Shown here piece after piece: positions 1,770 to 8,835 of a stretch of DNA of 8,835 nt. The notes beneath the pieces are model-generated. The model saw only the letters and a list, made by a program, of their open reading frames with translations, was not told the DNA's origin and ran no database searches. The position numbers were made by a program, and so were the translations under genes. Every line of letters starts with the position of its first letter. The stretch's first letter is position 1. The stretch comes from a virus (lineage: Duplodnaviria > Heunggongvirae > Uroviricota > Caudoviricetes): IMG/VR virus record IMGVR_UViG_2663763227_000005. One strand, 5' to 3'.

Positions 1770-2306
1770 TCAAACAACCCACCAGTTTGCCTGATTGGAT
1801 ACCAGCCTTGCAGTTTTTATGGAATTAATTATGCCATGCTCAAGAGCCTTGTTAGCATCCAAAATGGTCGAGTCTGCTATCAGGGATGCCCACCTAATAT
1901 GGGTTCCGATGTCGATATTGAACGTCTCAACGAAGCGATCAAGATCGTTATCGAGGCATTTCCCGTACTCTCTCAATCTGGCATGGTCGGCGGCTGGGGA
2001 GGCAAAGCACCATAATAGAGGATGTAACAGGAATCTTGATAATGGGTTTGCGAAACGTTCTGAGCCAGCCAGGAAAACGATATTAGCTATGGATTCAACA
2101 TTGCTTATGTTGTGAGTTCTAACGGTAACAGGGAGTGACTTAAGAAAGTTATACGCAGTAAAGCCAGCGGCAGTTTCCCCTCCCTGACTTGATATATGGA
2201 TATTTAATTCAGTTGCGCCTTGAGATAATGCGGTGAGACAGTGGTTCTGAAGTTGCCCAACAGTGGCAGTGTTAACGGGGCATAAGAAATGAATTGTGTG
2301 CAGCAT
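1770..2306 (-). CDS. ClpP-fold (Clp/crotonase superfamily) serine protease, minimal core of 178 aa, in the sieA position of the immI region.
   Basis: Aligns by eye to the E. coli ClpP core: ISSQGGETAAG vs INSPGGVITAG; VESIANIVFLAG vs AASMGAFLLTAG (catalytic Ser aligned); RFLLHP vs RVMIHQP (catalytic His aligned); ANKALEHGIINSI vs APEAVEYGLVDSIL. The ATG overlaps the mnt stop (TAATG on the minus strand), with AAGGA 9 nt upstream. Confidence 0.8.
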   Translation of the reverse strand: MLHTIHFLCPVNTATVGQLQNHCLTALSQGATELNIHISSQGGETAAGFTAYNFLKSLPVTVRTHNISNVESIANIVFLAGSERFANPLSRFLLHPLLWCFASPAADHARLREYGKCLDNDLDRFVETFNIDIGTHIRWASLIADSTILDANKALEHGIINSIKTARLVSNQANWWVV

Positions 2307-2554
2307 TATTTTTCATCCTTACCATACATGGTCTTTAGCGTCTCAAGCAGCGCCTCTTTGAATTTGTCAGCTTCTTGCTGAGCAAATGACTCAACTGACT
2401 TTGGCGACCTATCTTCATCAATCGCGGCTTGCAAAATCATGACGATCTCGGAGTTAACAGAGCGACCATTTTTTGATGCTCTGACAGCAAGAGCCTCGCG
2501 TAAAGATTCAGGGATTCTTACCGTAGTTGGAGAAATTGACACACCCTTTGCCAT
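2306..2554 (-). CDS. mnt: Mnt-like ribbon-helix-helix maintenance repressor (82 aa).
   Basis: GRSVNSEIVMILQAAI matches P22 Mnt GRSMNSELLQIVQDAL as recalled. Size is right (P22 Mnt is about 83 aa). It is divergent from arc-ant as in P22. AAGGTG SD lies 4 nt upstream of the ATG. Confidence 0.8.
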   Translation of the reverse strand: MAKGVSISPTTVRIPESLREALAVRASKNGRSVNSEIVMILQAAIDEDRSPKSVESFAQQEADKFKEALLETLKTMYGKDEK

Positions 2555-2668: not shown

Positions 2669-2821
2669 ATGGAGAAAGAAATAAGTAAGATTTTGGTAAG
2701 GATGCCGCAGTCGTTAAAGGATGCTATAGGTAGCAGGGCAAAGGAAGAGTGCAGGTCGTTTAACTCAGAGGTTATCAAGCGCCTGATAGACAGCTTGAAG
2801 AGAGAGGGGGTAATGGTATGA
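2669..2821 (+). CDS. arc: Arc-like ribbon-helix-helix repressor (50 aa from ATG 2669). The track ORF starts at TTG 2633, but the ATG with a GGAGGG SD is preferred.
   Basis: ILVRMPQSLKDAI...CRSFNSEVIKRLIDSLKREG matches P22 Arc ...RWPREVLDLV...GRSVNSEIYQRVMESFKKEG in pattern. GGAGGG (2658-2663) lies 5 nt upstream of ATG 2669. Confidence 0.75.
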   Translation: MEKEISKILVRMPQSLKDAIGSRAKEECRSFNSEVIKRLIDSLKREGVMV

Positions 2822-3021
2822 GTAAAGAATGTTGTTTCTGCGGCATTAGCGAATCAGACGCTGATCAAACATACATTTACTCTAAAGAAACAGGTCGGAT
2901 GCTGTGTAGTGACTGCGTGTTGGACATCATAAGATACAAGCATCTTGGATGTTCTGCCAGCATTAGCAATATAGGTGAAGTATATGAAGGGAAAGATATA
3001 ACTGATAGATCAGAAAGTTGA
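2818..3021 (+). CDS. Small CxxC...CxxC zinc-ribbon protein (67 aa) inserted between arc and ant; function unknown.
   Basis: Cys5-x2-Cys8 and Cys30-x2-Cys33 spacing. The ATG overlaps the arc stop (ATGA at 2818-2821). No equivalent gene lies between arc and ant in P22 as I recall it. Confidence 0.5.
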   Translation: MSKECCFCGISESDADQTYIYSKETGRMLCSDCVLDIIRYKHLGCSASISNIGEVYEGKDITDRSES

Positions 3022-3083
3022 AGCCCCAACTGCGGGAACAGTCAGGGCTTCGGTATCAACAAATCGTCTTAGGAAATATTGAC
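3013..3083 (-). ncRNA. sar: Candidate sar-like antisense RNA (about 70 nt), complementary to the ant ribosome-binding site and start codon.
   Basis: Leftward promoter: -35 TTGATA (plus-strand 3113-3118), 17-bp spacer, extended -10 TGcTATACT (plus-strand 3090-3098). Predicted TSS is near 3083. A compound hairpin AAGCCC-ca-ACTG-cgggaa-CAGT-ca-GGGCTT (3021-3050) is followed on the minus strand by CAACUUUCUG. The predicted length matches the roughly 68-69 nt P22 sar RNA (from memory). Confidence 0.4.
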
Positions 3084-4013
3084 ATGAAAAGTATAGCAAC
3101 AGCAGTATCTACTATCAATGTGCCATTCCACGGCGCAGAGCTTTATGTTGTCAATCACAACGGCGAACCGTACACCCCAATGAAACCTATCGTTGAGGGA
3201 ATGGGCATGACTTGGCAGTCTCAACACCGCAAGTTGATGGAGAGATTTAAGACCTGCATCATCGAAATGATGATTCAGCTCCCCGGCGATACTCAGCGTC
3301 GTCTGGTTATCTGTCTTGCTTTACGCAAACTTGCAGGTTGGCTGCAAACCATCAGCCCTAACAAAGTCCGCCCTGAAATCCGCGACAAGGTAATCCAGTA
3401 TCAGGAAGAGTGTGACGATGTACTCTACGAGTACTGGACTAAAGGCCATGTAGTTAACCCACGCAAAGCTAAAAAAGCGTTGCCGGGTAAAATCACCACT
3501 GAACAGCAGGAAGCCATTAAACAACTCGTCATGAGTCGCGGTCAGTCTCTGCCAAAAGAAAAACAGGCGAAGGCAATGATTACCATGTGGTCGTCACTGA
3601 AATCCCATTTTGGATGTTCGTACAAAGAAATCAGTGAGGAGCAGTTTACAGAAGCACTGTCACTTGCAGCTCGAGTTCCACTTGAAGGTGAGTTCATTGG
3701 CAAACAAGAGAAGAAAACCAACGAGCTTTCTGCAAAAGAAGCAAACAGCCTTGTATGGTTATGGGATTATGCCAACCGCTCACAGGCATTATTCCGCGAA
3801 CTGTATCCGGCGCTAAAACAAATTCAATCGAACTATTCCGGCAGATGTCATGACTGCGGTTATGAGTTCTCCCGTATTATCGATATGGCGAGAGATGTTT
3901 TAATCAACCATACACGAGATATTGATATTAATGAGCCAGACGGACCAACGAATCTTTCCGCATGGATGAGACTTAAGAATAAAGAATTACCTCCTTCAGT
4001 ACATAACTACTGA
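3084..4013 (+). CDS. ant: Ant antirepressor (P22 Ant-type N-terminal domain), 310 aa from ATG 3084. The track ORF starts at TTG 3018, which would run through the hairpin.
   Basis: VPFHGAELYVVNHNGEPYTPMKPIVEGMGMTWQSQHRKLMERF resembles the P22 antirepressor N-terminal domain pattern. AGGAAA (3071-3076) lies 7 nt upstream of ATG 3084. The position after arc and before the tailspike is as in P22. Confidence 0.85.
   Translation: MKSIATAVSTINVPFHGAELYVVNHNGEPYTPMKPIVEGMGMTWQSQHRKLMERFKTCIIEMMIQLPGDTQRRLVICLALRKLAGWLQTISPNKVRPEIRDKVIQYQEECDDVLYEYWTKGHVVNPRKAKKALPGKITTEQQEAIKQLVMSRGQSLPKEKQAKAMITMWSSLKSHFGCSYKEISEEQFTEALSLAARVPLEGEFIGKQEKKTNELSAKEANSLVWLWDYANRSQALFRELYPALKQIQSNYSGRCHDCGYEFSRIIDMARDVLINHTRDIDINEPDGPTNLSAWMRLKNKELPPSVHNY
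3090..3118 (-). promoter_or_regulatory. Psar-like leftward sigma70 promoter inside the 5' end of ant.
   Basis: Minus-strand TTGATA - 17 bp - TGcTATACT, a near-consensus extended -10 promoter, read directly from the sequence. Confidence 0.45.
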
Positions 4014-4030
4014 TAGATAACCAACGCAAC

Positions 4031-4056
4031 GACCCAGCTTCGGCTGGGTTTTTTTA
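4031..4056 (+). terminator. Rho-independent terminator after ant.
   Basis: GC-rich stem ACCCAGC (4032-4038), UUCG tetraloop (4039-4042), stem GCTGGGT (4043-4049), then a T-run through 4055. Confidence 0.8.
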
Positions 4057-4113: not shown

Positions 4114-6801
4114 ATGACAGATATTACAGCCAATGTGATCGTATCGATGCCTTCGCAACTCTTCACTATGGCTCGTTCTTTTAAAGCCGTAGCCAATGGC
4201 AAAATTTATATCGGTAAAATTGACACTGACCCGGTAAATCCTGAAAACCAGATTCAGGTTTATGTGGAGAACGAAGACGGCTCTCACGTTCCTGTTTCGC
4301 AACCAATAATCATTAACGCTGCTGGATATCCGGTATATAACGGGCAGATTGCCAAATTCGTTACCGTGCAAGGTCATTCTATGGCTGTTTATGATGCATA
4401 TGGTGCGCAGCAGTTCTATTTTCCTAATGTGCTGAAGTATGACCCTGATCAGTCATTGAAATATGTAGAAGGGGCATTGCTTGTTACTGACTTAGGTAAT
4501 GGGACGTTTAAGAATAGTAGAAAAGACGTTGCCATTGGGGATAATCTAACAGGAACCAATTTTATTAGAATAAACGGCGGCGTCTATAAATGCACTCCAG
4601 TTGCAACTGGAATTGTTACTGAGATCAAACATAGATACATTATCGCAGGCGGGGTTAAAAGCTACCTGTCTCATATTTCCAGGCATGTCAGTGGTACGCG
4701 TAGGCCGCTGAACTGGAAATTAGAATTCAGCATCATAGACGATGAGATTACCGCAGATCTTAAAGATCAGTATGGTTACACGACCATGGGATTTCAGGGG
4801 ATTTACATAGACAGCAATGATGGAATGGTATACATCGGCTGGCAGACGCTAGACCCCGCATCGGTATGGGTTACGGTGCATGACTGGGTAACAGGAGCAT
4901 TGGTAACACGTCTTCATTTTCCGAATAACGTTGGTGCACCAGAAGGCATCCACGTTTACCGAGTGGCAGGACAGCGTTACATCCTGCTGCCGTACAGCCC
5001 ATCTCGCACTATCAGAATTTACCCTATCGAAGATCCGCGTACGCTGGTTGATAAAACGCAGATTACAAACTTCACTGAATCAACACGCCTTGGAGTGCGA
5101 TATCAGTTTAGTGGCTTTGGTAATACCCTGATATACGAAAATGCGGATATGGGTTGGCCGAAAATTTTTGATGTTGAGACAGGTGTATCCAATATCTTTA
5201 ACACACTGGATATTAACAGCCTTATAGAAGGATCTTACAGTCCAATGGGGACTATTACGGTTGATGCAAATGTTGGAGGTCGCGGAGCCGGTAAACCAAA
5301 ACGGCAGGGTGTCGCTCTTGGTTCTCAACGGATATTTGCTGGTATTGGTGCATCTACCACGGCGGGATCTGGAAATACTTTCGCAGGGTTGCAGGGTTAT
5401 ATTGAGTACAGCCTTAATGGTTCAGAATTAGGTCAGTACCTGCTGTCACCTGCAGATTTCAAAACATACTGGGATAGTTATTCAGGGAAGAGTGTTTACT
5501 CCACTGAAAATGAGGGGGTGCAGTCTTGTGATATTTCTGGCTCTGAGGAATTGTATCTTCTACAGTCTATTCGCTATGACAATGGGGGCGGATCAAATTA
5601 TAGGACTTTAAACATCATTCGCGCTAACTGTCCATCTAATGAACCTGGAACAGTAGACATGACTCCGCTATCCAATGCCTCCTCACAGTTATTTAACCCT
5701 CGCGGAAGGGTGATTAACGCTGGCCGTCACCCTGTGAACCCGGCTGATGGTATTGCGCTATTTACATCGGCACAGGCTATTTGTGACTATTTGCGGAATA
5801 CAGATGCAGGTAGATATGTGACATATCTTGAACAGGATATGCCACTGTTTGAAGGTGGGCCATCTGCGCCAGGACAGATGACGCTGCCAGCATTCTGCCT
5901 ATTGCAGATCGACTTCATCAACGGCGATACCTGGGAAATTACAGTTAATGGAACTAACAGGGCTAATAATTATACAGGAAGGATTTCCAAAAACGGCGGG
6001 TACAACTCTTTTACTAAGGTGTCCTCCCGCAGCATGTCGATTCTCGGATCCCCTGGTCTGGTTGATGTATCAATTCGCTCACCTAACTCACTAAATCTTC
6101 CAGAATTTGCTGGAGACTGGTCTACTGGTGTAAGTATAGGAGCTGCAGGTGGGGTGACAAACTGGCAGCCAGAAGGAACAGGTAACGGAGCATTATGGGA
6201 GTCAGGATATGCAAAAAACCGTGTGTTGCAGATATTCATGTCCACAACATCAAAACTGTTCTTCCGCTACGCAGACGATGCTATTCGCGCAGGTAACACA
6301 GGCTGGGCTGAGGCATGGTCGTCGCTGAACACGACCGTCGATTCAAGTGGTTTCATCAAAAAAGCCTCTCCGGTTGTGAAGATTTTCTCAGACGGTAGTA
6401 GTGAAACAAATCGCGAATCAGATGGGGTAACCGTCACACGGCTGGCATTGGGTGAATATCTGATTGAGGGTTGCGTAGGTCTGAATGCAGATGCTTCATG
6501 GGGGGGGATTGATGGTGGATTTGAAATACCGCAGGACCGAAACAAGCAGCCGCTCATCTGGCTGGATTATGTTGTTAACCAAGATGGATCTGTGTTGGTG
6601 AAAACGTTTCACCGCACTCATGATAACTCGCCCGTTTTTGCACGTAACGACATCCCTGGTGTTTCGAACGGTGACCCGATCGACATTCCTGCTAATCAAT
6701 TCGTTTCTGTGCGAGTACAGATGCCTGAGGATTCTGCATGGAATAAGCTTAAGGAACAACTAAATAAGGCTGAATTGATAGAAGATGATGTTGTGGAATA
6801 G
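4114..6801 (+). CDS. Tailspike protein (895 aa). The N-terminal roughly 113 aa is a P22 gp9-type head-binding domain; the remaining roughly 780 aa is a divergent receptor-binding or depolymerase module of unknown specificity.
   Basis: [71 protein letters not shown]...[13 protein letters not shown]...NVLKYDPDQ is near-identical in pattern to the P22 gp9 N-terminus ([59 protein letters not shown]...VLKYDPDQ). Similarity is lost after YDPDQ. GGAG (4102-4105) lies 8 nt upstream of the ATG. Confidence 0.9.
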
Positions 6802-7487
6802 GTCTGTGATATTGGCATAGGTATAAGTGTCCGCTATATGGGTGGCATTACGCCACCTTGCCATCTAGCTAGTCCGCCCACCACTGCATCATTTCTCTGC
6901 GCTTAACGTAGCGGATGCCTCACTATCACACGGTGATGGTTCATTACTGCTTTGTAGAATGGATAGAGAACTGAGGATTAAAAGATATCCCAAAACCCCA
7001 AAATCTCATCTTTAGGATTTGCAGAAAGGGAGGCGTGAACAGATGCCTGCGCATGAAGACGGAACTAGTCCAGATGTGATATTTGTGGTGATCACATACA
7101 TCATCAACGATGCTCGTTATGGTGAGTTTGATGACTACCCGCTGAAGTGAAAATTGTTTTGTGTACCAAATTGCGTACCAAACTAAAATCACAAATCATG
7201 AAGCCCTTGTTCATGGCGGTTCTCAGGGGTGTTGCGCGTAATCGTGAAACAAAAAGGTAGATTGTTGCTTACCGTCATTCATCATTAGGTTAAATCCGTT
7301 GTTTCTGCTGTCTGCCAGAGTATCAAATATCACCGTGCTAATCAGCTTTAGCGCGACAATTTGGCAGCGAGTGGCAACAGATCATGTCAGATAAAAATGA
7401 GAGGGTAGTCACATTTTCTTGCACTTTATTCCAGCCAGTTCATAAGTATTTCCGTAAAAAGAACAGCTATTTGAAACTCCTGAGGGT

Positions 7488-8660
7488 TTGCTGTTGAAAC
7501 GCCGTCTTATTATTGCTGCTTCTTTGTTCGTTTTTAATTTATCGTCTGGTTTTGCGGCGGAAAACATTCCTTTTTCACCTCAACCTCCAGAGATTCATGC
7601 CGGGTCCTGGGTATTGATGGATTACACCACCGGTCAGATTCTCACCGCGGGTAATGAGCATCAACAGCGCAATCCCGCCAGCCTGACAAAGCTGATGACG
7701 GGCTATGTCGTGGATCGCGCTATCGATAGTCATCGCATTACGCCAGACGATATTGTCACCGTGGGGCGTGATGCGTGGGCGAAAGATAATCCGGTGTTTG
7801 TCGGTTCTTCACTGATGTTTTTGAAAGAGGGCGATCGCGTATCGGTACGTGATTTAAGCCGTGGTTTAATTGTGGATTCCGGAAATGACGCTTGTGTTGC
7901 ACTGGCTGACTATATTGCCGGTGGGCAACGGCAGTTTGTTGAAATGATGAACAACTATGCCGAGAAGCTGCATCTCAAGGATACGCATTTTGAAACAGTG
8001 CATGGTCTGGATGCACCTGGCCAGCATAGCTCGGCTTATGATTTAGCTGTGCTTTCTCGCGCTATCATCCACGGCGAGCCCGAGTTTTATCATATGTACA
8101 GTGAGAAAAGCCTCACCTGGAACGGTATCACCCAGCAAAACCGTAACGGGTTATTGTGGGATAAAACCATGAATGTTGACGGCCTGAAAACGGGTCATAC
8201 TTCTGGTGCCGGGTTTAATCTCATTGCTTCGGCTGTAGATGGGCAGCGTCGTCTCATTGCAGTGGTAATGGGGGCTGACAGCGCAAAAGGTCGTGAGGAA
8301 GAGGCAAGAAAATTACTGCGTTGGGGTCAACAAAACTTTACTACGGTGCAAATTTTGCACCGTGGGAAAAAGGTTGGTACGGAACGCATCTGGTATGGCG
8401 ATAAAGAAAATATCGCCCTGGGAACGGAACAAGAGTTCTGGATGGTGCTACCGAAAGCCGAAATTCCACATATCAAAGCCAAATATACCCTTGATGGTAA
8501 AGAACTCACCGCGCCAATTAGCGCCCATCAGCGGGTAGGGGAAATTGAACTTTACGACCGTGATAAACAGGTGGCGCACTGGCCGCTGGTTACCCTGGAA
8601 TCTGTCGGGGAAGGCAGCATGTTTTCCCGGCTGAGTGATTATTTCCACCATAAGGACTGA
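7488..8660 (+). CDS. dacD: D-alanyl-D-alanine carboxypeptidase DacD (PBP6b), a host gene. It has a non-ATG start: TTG at 7488, or TTG at 7494 with better SD spacing.
   Basis: The protein matches E. coli DacD essentially along its full length as I remember it (signal peptide LIIAASLFVFNLSSGFA, SxxK motif in PASLTKLMT, SGN, KTG). GAGGG (7482-7486) lies upstream. Confidence 0.9.
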   Translation: MLLKRRLIIAASLFVFNLSSGFAAENIPFSPQPPEIHAGSWVLMDYTTGQILTAGNEHQQRNPASLTKLMTGYVVDRAIDSHRITPDDIVTVGRDAWAKDNPVFVGSSLMFLKEGDRVSVRDLSRGLIVDSGNDACVALADYIAGGQRQFVEMMNNYAEKLHLKDTHFETVHGLDAPGQHSSAYDLAVLSRAIIHGEPEFYHMYSEKSLTWNGITQQNRNGLLWDKTMNVDGLKTGHTSGAGFNLIASAVDGQRRLIAVVMGADSAKGREEEARKLLRWGQQNFTTVQILHRGKKVGTERIWYGDKENIALGTEQEFWMVLPKAEIPHIKAKYTLDGKELTAPISAHQRVGEIELYDRDKQVAHWPLVTLESVGEGSMFSRLSDYFHHKD

Positions 8661-8835
8661 CCTTTCTTTTGCAGCAGACTGGCAGGAGTGCGAGTCTGCT
8701 CGCATAATCAACACTCATTCCTTGTGGTTTTAATATTGCAACTATACTGTATATAAAAGGGTCTTCCCCGATCATGGTGGGAAGACTCAGTACGCCATAT
8801 TCAGTTTCCCATAGTGGAACATAACTCCCAGTTTA

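Follow-up and report, generated by a model that had tools for sequence, protein, structure and literature searches.

A predicted sar antisense RNA unit, an intact-looking copy of that of phage P22, in the immI region of a P22-like prophage of Escherichia coli

The window analysed here, by which we mean the whole 8,835-nucleotide stretch of DNA from IMG/VR virus record IMGVR_UViG_2663763227_000005 (Duplodnaviria; Heunggongvirae; Uroviricota; Caudoviricetes), carries a complete immI (immunity I) gene set: mnt, arc and an ant gene with both P22 antirepressor domains, followed by the tailspike gene. The genes that frame the feature under study, and the Shine-Dalgarno sequence (SD) of the regulated gene, are placed as follows.

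2306..2554, minus strand: mnt-like gene for an Arc-family repressor of 82 aa (Pfam Arc, E 1e-10), divergent from arc
2669..2821, plus strand: arc, an Arc-family repressor of 50 aa (Pfam Arc, E 5e-12)
2818..3021, plus strand: ORF67, a small CxxC...CxxC protein of 67 codons, between arc and sar
3071..3076, plus strand: SD of ant, AGGAAA, 7 nt 5' of the ATG (3084-3086), the target of the predicted sar loop
3084..4013, plus strand: ant, the regulated gene, an antirepressor of 309 aa (Pfam P22_AR_N, E 1e-45; P22_AR_C, E 2e-28)
4114..6801: tailspike gene with a P22 head-binding domain

The rightward operon begins with arc and ends with ant. A promoter-like site (TTGACT-17-TATCTT, 2604-2632) lies by arc, a terminator-like site (4031-4050) lies 3' of ant, and mnt occupies the same place as in the P22 reference annotation. 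A ClpP-like ORF, at 1770-2306, adjoins mnt on its downstream side. The right flank of the window is E. coli dacD at 98.8% identity, which identifies the window as the right-hand end of a P22-like E. coli prophage. For the immI region, identity to the best-matching E. coli sequence is only 92.5%, and on that account a host other than E. coli was considered; the dacD flank rules it out, and the low immI identity is explained by mosaicism rather than by a different species. Within this setting, positions 3014-3118 very probably constitute the sar transcription unit of the immI region of a P22-like E. coli prophage.

A sequence-only reading of the window had suggested that a sar-like antisense RNA unit spans the ribosome-binding site (RBS) of ant. 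That call is supported by the sequence comparisons reported below: the unit looks like an intact copy of the P22 sar antisense RNA, with a full-length match to the Rfam sar family and an alignment with the P22 sar annotation. Its predicted parts, including the promoter (Psar), are listed here.

3014..3083, minus strand: predicted sar RNA of 68-70 nt, 5'-GUCAAUAUUUCCUAAGACGAUUUGUUGAUACCGAAGCCCUGACUGUUCCCGCAGUUGGGGCUUCAACUUU-3', placed from RF00262, the P22 alignment and promoter geometry
3055..3083, minus strand: stem-loop I, with a 7-bp stem (RNA nt 1-7 with 23-29) and the anti-SD UUUCCU in its loop
3020..3051, minus strand: stem-loop II, the terminator hairpin, with a 14-bp stem in which three pairs are G.U and with the loop UCCC (RNA nt 33-64)
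3014..3019, minus strand: 3' tail AACUUU with a short U-tract, the same in P22 (AACUUUA)
3090..3098, minus strand: extended -10 of Psar, TGcTATACT, encoded by ant codons 3-5 (AGT ATA GCA)
3113..3118, minus strand: -35 of Psar, TTGATA, 5/6 to consensus, inside ant codons 10-12

The match to RF00262 (sar) runs from 3082 to 3016 on the minus strand and scores 73.4 bits (E 3e-14) over the full length of the model (1-68 of 68), above the gathering score of 43 bits. No non-canonical pairs were flagged in it, and RF00262 was the only Rfam family detected in the window. The matched segment lies cis-antisense to the ant leader and RBS, beside Arc- and Mnt-type repressors. In the P22 reference annotation sar is a misc_RNA (15021..15090, minus) whose terminator (15021..15058) and promoter (15097..15125) are annotated as well; the three map to window positions 3014-3083, 3020-3051 and 3090-3098 (the -10), respectively. 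Homology between the window and P22 is limited to 3014-3099. To its left P22 has arc and the window has ORF67, and to its right lie differing ant N-terminal alleles.

The ends of the RNA (3083 to 3014-3016) are predictions from homology and promoter geometry. Transcription would start at G3083, the base directly 5' of the ant ATG, given a 7-nt spacing from the -10 and the position of the P22 5' end; the annotated P22 sar RNA likewise begins at the base preceding the ant ATG. From that start the RNA would cover the SD and the leader and stop one base short of the start codon. Thus, of the earlier suggestion that antisense transcription passes over both the ant SD and the start codon, the part concerning the SD (AGGAAA, confirmed at 3071-3076) and the whole leader stands, and the part concerning the start codon does not.

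The leftward promoter that had been read in the first codons of ant is present between 3118 and 3090. It consists of TTGATA, a 17-bp spacer and TGcTATACT, for a score of 10/12 plus the TG. Only two sites in the 8.8-kb window score 10/12, and Psar is the only one of them with a TG. Matches of at least 9/12 are not enriched (13 observed versus 16.3 expected from shuffled sequence). Because promoter-like matches are as common in shuffled sequence, the Psar promoter alone would not carry the case. At the level of sequence it is nevertheless what a sar promoter would be, convergent, inside the first ant codons and with its predicted start just 5' of the AUG. The -10 box, TGCTATACT, is identical in P22 and the window. 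The -35 sits in an ant N-terminal allele that is non-homologous to that of P22, and the window's TTGATA, found also in 18 of 122 related loci, is nearer consensus than the GTGTTA of P22 (3/6). Across these loci, the first two bases of the -10 box, T-A, and its sixth, T, are kept without exception (122/122), and the TG upstream of it is present in 119. Codon 4 of ant, which falls in the -10 box, is ATA, the sole ATA among the 21 Ile codons of the gene. We take these patterns to indicate that Psar is under selection: the -10 is kept within coding sequence, and the rare ATA codon fits a promoter constraint.

For the predicted 70-nt sar RNA, the fold consists of two hairpins and has an energy of -29.7 kcal/mol (z -6.3), with none of 200 shuffles equally stable and with identical MFE and centroid structures. 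P22 sar has the same two-hairpin architecture at -29.5 kcal/mol. In the window RNA, the UUUCCU displayed in the loop of stem-loop I is the complement of 3071-3076, and the stem of the terminator hairpin is identical to that of the annotated P22 sar terminator, one loop base being different. Folding, covariation and identity to P22 are consistent in pointing to two stem-loops, of which the 3' one is a predicted intrinsic terminator. The conjunction of promoter, hairpin and target is far beyond chance (Rfam E 3e-14, fold z -6.3).

The hairpin had been placed at 3021-3050 and described as compound. Its position was right to within one base (3020-3051), but on the sar strand it is simple, a stem of 14 bp closed by a loop of 4 nt, and the compound look belongs to the plus strand only. 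The observation that it begins at the stop codon of the extra ORF is borne out, as TGA 3019-3021 overlaps the first two stem bases. The sequence-only reading had named the short U-tract as its own weak point. The shortness is real: the tract reads UUUCU, and a generic terminator scan did not call the sar hairpin, with only 4 U in 8. It is, however, no weaker than in P22, as seen by comparing the U-tract of the window, AACUUUCU (UUUCU), with that of P22, AACUUUAC (UUUAC). We considered the missed call as evidence against termination and rejected it, because in the archetype, P22, the run of U is shorter still and the hairpin is an annotated terminator. Many homologues have at least four consecutive U at the tail position. 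In small-RNA sequencing of P22, the sar contig continues for ~30 nt past the annotated 3' end (PMC13397905), which suggests that termination may be leaky, by analogy also for the window sar.

Strand matters for the interpretation of this hairpin. It forms on the plus strand too, at -18.6 kcal/mol, but the fold is weaker there since three G.U pairs turn into C.A mismatches, and this asymmetry argues for a hairpin built for the leftward transcript. One could nonetheless propose that it works in the arc-ORF67-ant mRNA, as an attenuator, an RNase site or an mRNA stabiliser, and that the leftward promoter is a chance match, as the frequency of promoter-like matches of at least 9/12 in shuffled sequence might encourage. 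Besides the mismatches, the plus-strand fold has a z of only -2.35 and no T-run follows the hairpin; the Rfam model scores the minus strand; and Psar combines 10/12 plus TG with a -10 that is identical to that of the characterised P22 Psar and conserved in 122 loci. We regard a plus-strand role as extremely improbable.

Homologues allow the structure to be examined more broadly. The loci compared were annotated phage loci together with those from exact-pattern hairpin scans of species-representative genomes, which gave four matches (Pectobacterium, Tatumella, Entomohabitans and Lonsdalea), and of IMG/VR, with at least 120. The Rfam model finds sar in 13 of 15 loci from phages or E. coli, and in each of the four species-representative genomes. 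Among the 122 loci whose flanks were usable, 62 sar sequences are distinct; once two divergent phage sequences are included, the distinct 5' domains number 38. In 37 of these 38, nt 1 opens a stem of 5 bp or more, compared with 9.7% of shuffles, and stem I is built from 16 distinct arm pairs. The anti-SD is always in the loop of stem-loop I.

Alignment with MAFFT followed by RNAalifold, applied to 21 diverse sar sequences, recovered only hairpin II; stem I was missed owing to misalignment by differences in loop length and register. This approach was replaced by a covariance-model alignment and by the per-sequence folding test with shuffles. The model was built from seven window-type sequences, and its 67 aligned matches comprise 66 sar homologues and one weak reverse-strand match in locus L067. 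In this alignment 98.1% of cells are paired, versus 31-43% with slid partners, and 10 pairs have changes on both sides among the 67 matches, including all 7 of stem I, although these counts are somewhat inflated because the alignment was fitted to the structure. In stem-loop II, TL-2011b and the Klebsiella phage ST101-KPC2phi6.1 have compensatory replacements of the upper stem that are still complementary. Both sar helices thus appear to have undergone compensatory changes across the 66 homologues.

The hairpin also behaves as a recombination junction. Upstream flank and stem-loop I types reassort across it (47 combinations, 68 four-gamete quartets), and stem-loop I and the ant allele are linked far more tightly (1 four-gamete quartet). 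Stem-loop I types could be specificity classes that limit cross-repression among co-resident P22-like phages. Alternatively, the segment might be mainly a recombination linker, with the 32-nt hairpin and the ATG/-10 as immI exchange boundaries and an RNA without regulatory role. The reassortment is what such a linker would produce, the window's own module triple is unique among 133 loci, and the annotators of CUS-3 called the stretch 'boundary sequence'. Left unexplained would be the compensatory changes that preserve stem I, the strand asymmetry based on G.U pairs, the retention of a good promoter within coding sequence with a rare codon, and the constant location of the anti-SD in the loop. 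We therefore consider a linker in place of a regulatory RNA highly unlikely. A linker role is compatible with a sar role, and is more likely an addition to it than an alternative.

A further question is whether a genuine sar gene might now be a silent relic, in a prophage that is defective or does not express ant, and thus be without present function. The window covers only the right end of the prophage, beside host dacD, and the region is in rapid flux in the P22-like group, some members of which have degraded ant or arc (PMC2629481). In this prophage, however, mnt, arc, ORF67, ant and the tailspike gene are all open, full length and equipped with the expected domains, the promoter is nearer consensus than that of P22, and neither helix has a disabling change. 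Loss of function seems unlikely in light of these features.

ORF67 separates arc from sar in the window. Its start codon shares the sequence ATGA with the stop of arc, and it ends on a TGA within the base of the sar terminator stem. That an extra ORF lies between arc and ant had been noted; it is present, but it is not special to this locus, as ~40% of the 122 related loci have some small ORF before sar. In ~61 of these loci an Arc-family gene abuts sar, and in ~50 there is a small ORF, from at least 8 unrelated families; the ORF67 family accounts for 23. ORFs between arc and sar are annotated in Emek, 611R6 and phiv205-1. In the slots inspected (window/CUS-3, Emek/611R6, phiv205-1 and S.Kent), the start codon of the ORF overlaps the stop codon of arc, and the ORF ends on a TGA at the base of the sar stem.

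Three families of slot ORFs encode CxxC...CxxC proteins that may be zinc fingers like that of ClpX. ORF67 itself has no Pfam match, and none to PF06689 (ClpX-type C4 zinc finger) even at E values up to 10, and so falls short of the gathering score of that family. Distant relatives of ORF67 in the same slot score 12-14 bits against PF06689, and the different cargo ORF of locus L072, a true zinc finger of the ClpX type, reaches 43 bits where the cutoff is 27. Profile alignment (hhalign) of the ORF67 family with the N-terminus of E. coli ClpX and L072 gave 89% probability over 33 columns, and BLASTP of ORF67 against the same two aligned only 11-31 residues. The best PDB sequence match (phmmer) is the RING domain of RNF4 (E 0.005). 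A single-sequence AlphaFold model has strands and then a helix after the second CxxC, at a pLDDT of only 57. ORF67 may therefore resemble a ClpX-type zinc finger at the profile level only, without Pfam support.

The recurrent geometry of these ORFs raises the idea that the sar terminator hairpin also serves as the fixed right border of a cargo slot in immI, a reading that we hold tentatively and think rather unlikely. If the arrangement were designed, a ribosome that terminated at the TGA would open the hairpin of the ant leader into which sar has to pair, and cargo translation could tune pairing between sar and ant. Clp-like cargo, for its part, could determine how stable Ant, Arc or the prophage repressor is.

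The founding studies of P22 sar are reportedly those of Liao et al. 1987, Wu et al. 1987 and Schaefer & McClure 1997; what we say of the mechanism in P22 is drawn from later open-access papers that cite the original work and from GenBank annotation. Passages in four such papers describe sar as an antisense RNA of the arc-ant intergenic region that binds the ant RBS and contributes to setting how often lysogeny occurs (PMC7968456, PMC10732415, PMC11016777, PMC12111858). Passages in three of them add that it blocks Ant synthesis post-transcriptionally, and does so in trans too (PMC7968456, PMC10732415, PMC11016777). Small-RNA sequencing has detected sar during P22 infection (PMC13397905).

Given the one-to-one correspondence in anatomy with P22, we infer the same mechanism for the sar of the window; transcript ends, termination, action in trans and translational repression would, by analogy with the P22 work, be as in that phage. 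Sigma-70 RNA polymerase would start at Psar, within ant codons 3-12, and transcribe leftward from G3083, halting after 68-70 nt at the 14-bp G+C-rich hairpin (3020-3051) with its short U tail. The resulting RNA would be fully complementary to the ant mRNA leader, and its 5' stem-loop would display the anti-SD UUUCCU in the loop. Pairing with the leader would bury the RBS in a duplex that extends up to the base just 5' of the AUG, leaving Ant untranslated. The block would apply to transcripts from the arc-ORF67-ant promoter as well as to those reading through from late genes upstream. Alongside the repressors Arc and Mnt, sar would keep the antirepressor low and so protect both the establishment and the maintenance of lysogeny.

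The sar of the window is a known element that was correctly recognised, and not a new one. As sar has been characterised since 1987 and is a curated Rfam family, the finding carries little weight as a discovery, and its practical value is in annotation. A 91-nt query for the sar unit finds it in 647 of 5,426 complete E. coli genomes (~12%), with copies that are 100% identical in 2 of the 647, and the exact 70-nt sar RNA of the window recurs in IMG/VR contigs. In the RefSeq region that we inspected, in NZ_CP195498, the annotation has no sar feature, and for the other E. coli matches the listed features are all protein-coding. Some phage records run ant upstream through sar, and the CUS-3 record is without ORF67 and arc. 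The reassortment across the hairpin, the slot for cargo between arc and sar and the Clp-like genes of immI may be of modest use for understanding the mosaic evolution of temperate phages.

The closest relative is P22 sar itself, annotated in BK000583 and in epsilon34. The P22 RNA and that predicted in the window share the antisense position relative to the ant leader, the start and the length of 68-70 nt. The -10 (TGCTATACT, in ant codons 3-5), the 14-bp terminator stem and the AACUUU tail are identical, and both RNAs have two hairpins, the first of which carries the anti-SD in its loop. They differ in stem-loop I, which is GUCAAUA/UGUUGAU in the window and GUUGGU/ACUGAC in P22, with pairing preserved, and in the SD, which is AGGAAA in the window and GGAG in P22. 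Upstream of the terminator, the window has the cargo ORF67 where P22 has arc, and its Arc and Mnt are alleles divergent from those of P22. The window-type stem-loop I already occurs in the phages Kapi1 and PhiR12.

Beyond this lineage, the c4 antisense RNA of P1/P7 is, like sar, a small phage RNA by which an antirepressor gene is held off post-transcriptionally. Both c4 and the CA RNA of N15 arise by processing of a transcript from the same strand, 5' of the antirepressor gene, and work by means of short complementary boxes or of termination. CA is presented, in a passage of one of the papers cited above, as a small phage RNA that controls antirepressor synthesis (PMC10732415). Unlike sar, neither c4 nor CA is known to be a true cis-antisense RNA driven by a convergent promoter of its own, and their sequences are not known to be related to that of sar. 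Closer in design are RNA-OUT of IS10 and OOP of lambda, which are short, highly structured cis-antisense RNAs, each with its own promoter convergent with that of the target. Their sequences and targets (transposase for RNA-OUT, cII for OOP) are unrelated to those of sar. OOP acts at the 3' end of cII via RNase III cleavage and not by occluding an RBS, whereas RNA-OUT, reportedly described by Ma & Simons 1990, occludes the RBS of its target, as sar does.

The predicted terminator hairpin of the antisense RNA sar (window 3020-3051) is the main apparent junction at which upstream modules (arc or cargo genes) have recombined with a downstream module comprising stem-loop I and ant. This reading is based on allele combinations across 133 related loci, where 68 four-gamete quartets between upstream and downstream modules fall at the hairpin. 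The segment containing the ATG and the -10 element (3084-3099) is a much weaker junction, with one quartet in the same loci. As the 133 loci were chosen by an exact match to the hairpin, its invariance among them is partly by construction. Within this sample, the combination of an ORF67 flank, a Kapi1-type stem-loop I and a CUS-3-type ant was found in the window alone.

The junction between arc and sar can be described as a cargo slot, exemplified in the window by 2818-3021. Small ORFs lie between arc and sar in about 50 of the 122 loci that have the sar hairpin, and they belong to at least eight unrelated families. These include ORF67, Emek orf73, a 57-aa ORF, an 89-aa membrane protein and an 80-aa ORF, among others (related loci L009, L010, L011, L004, L061, L063, L072, L026 and L046). 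In the inspected examples (window/CUS-3, Emek/611R6, phiv205-1 and S.Kent), the start of the cargo ORF overlaps the arc stop. At the other end, cargo ORFs stop on the TGA that lies in the base of sar's terminator stem, or no more than a few bases away.

Beyond the arc-sar-ant segment, the window also contains these genes:

61-675, second antirepressor-like ORF, 204 aa, with Bro-N and P22_AR_C domains
1770-2306, minus strand, ClpP-like ORF, 178 aa, Pfam CLP_protease (E 2e-11)
7488-8660, host dacD, PBP6b-type carboxypeptidase, 98.8% identity to E. coli

The 204-aa antirepressor-like ORF is positioned upstream, in the late-operon direction. The ORFs that follow it, at 713-1492 and 1492-1713, have no Pfam matches. 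To the right of the tailspike gene (6802-8835) the prophage comes to an end and host dacD follows; the 8,835-nt window contains no tRNA gene.

The ClpP-like ORF lies directly downstream of mnt and overlaps its stop. Its homologue is labelled 'ATP-dependent Clp protease proteolytic subunit' in RefSeq and head maturation protease in one phage record. ORF67 encodes a CxxC...CxxC protein for which Pfam gave no match. In locus L072 the slot is occupied by another cargo ORF (60 aa), which is clearly a C4 zinc finger of the ClpX type (PF06689 at 43 bits); the cargo ORF of L063 matches the same domain weakly. In hhalign, the ORF67 family aligned with ClpX and the L072 protein at 89% probability. A single-sequence AlphaFold model of ORF67 (pLDDT 57) was too weak for use. 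Together, the ClpP-like ORF and the ClpX-finger-like cargo suggest a proteolysis theme in immI.

The ant frame is open upstream across the whole sar region, as far as a TTG at 3018 (3018-4013). Several phage records annotate ant from an upstream start, and hence across sar (L005, Kapi1; L008, SPN3UB; L012, GF-2). For ant the credible start is ATG 3084, which AGGAAA precedes by 7 nt. In Klebsiella phage ST101-KPC2phi6.1 (L013), a 1632-nt CDS recorded as a single hypothetical protein, and probably a fusion of an upstream ORF with ant, contains a sar-like element at 1169-1237. This element scores 38.6 bits, below the Rfam gathering score, and 63 bits with our covariance model built from window-type sequences. 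Its stem-loop I is of the window type, its U-tract is long and its terminator stem is altered compensatorily.

Phage CUS-3 was reported in a 2008 comparison as apparently lacking arc (PMC2629481), and in its record (L001, CP000711) positions 2357-2838 are annotated only as 'bsq2 boundary sequence'. This DNA encodes an Arc-like 46-aa ORF and a copy of ORF67, and includes a full sar match of 84.6 bits.
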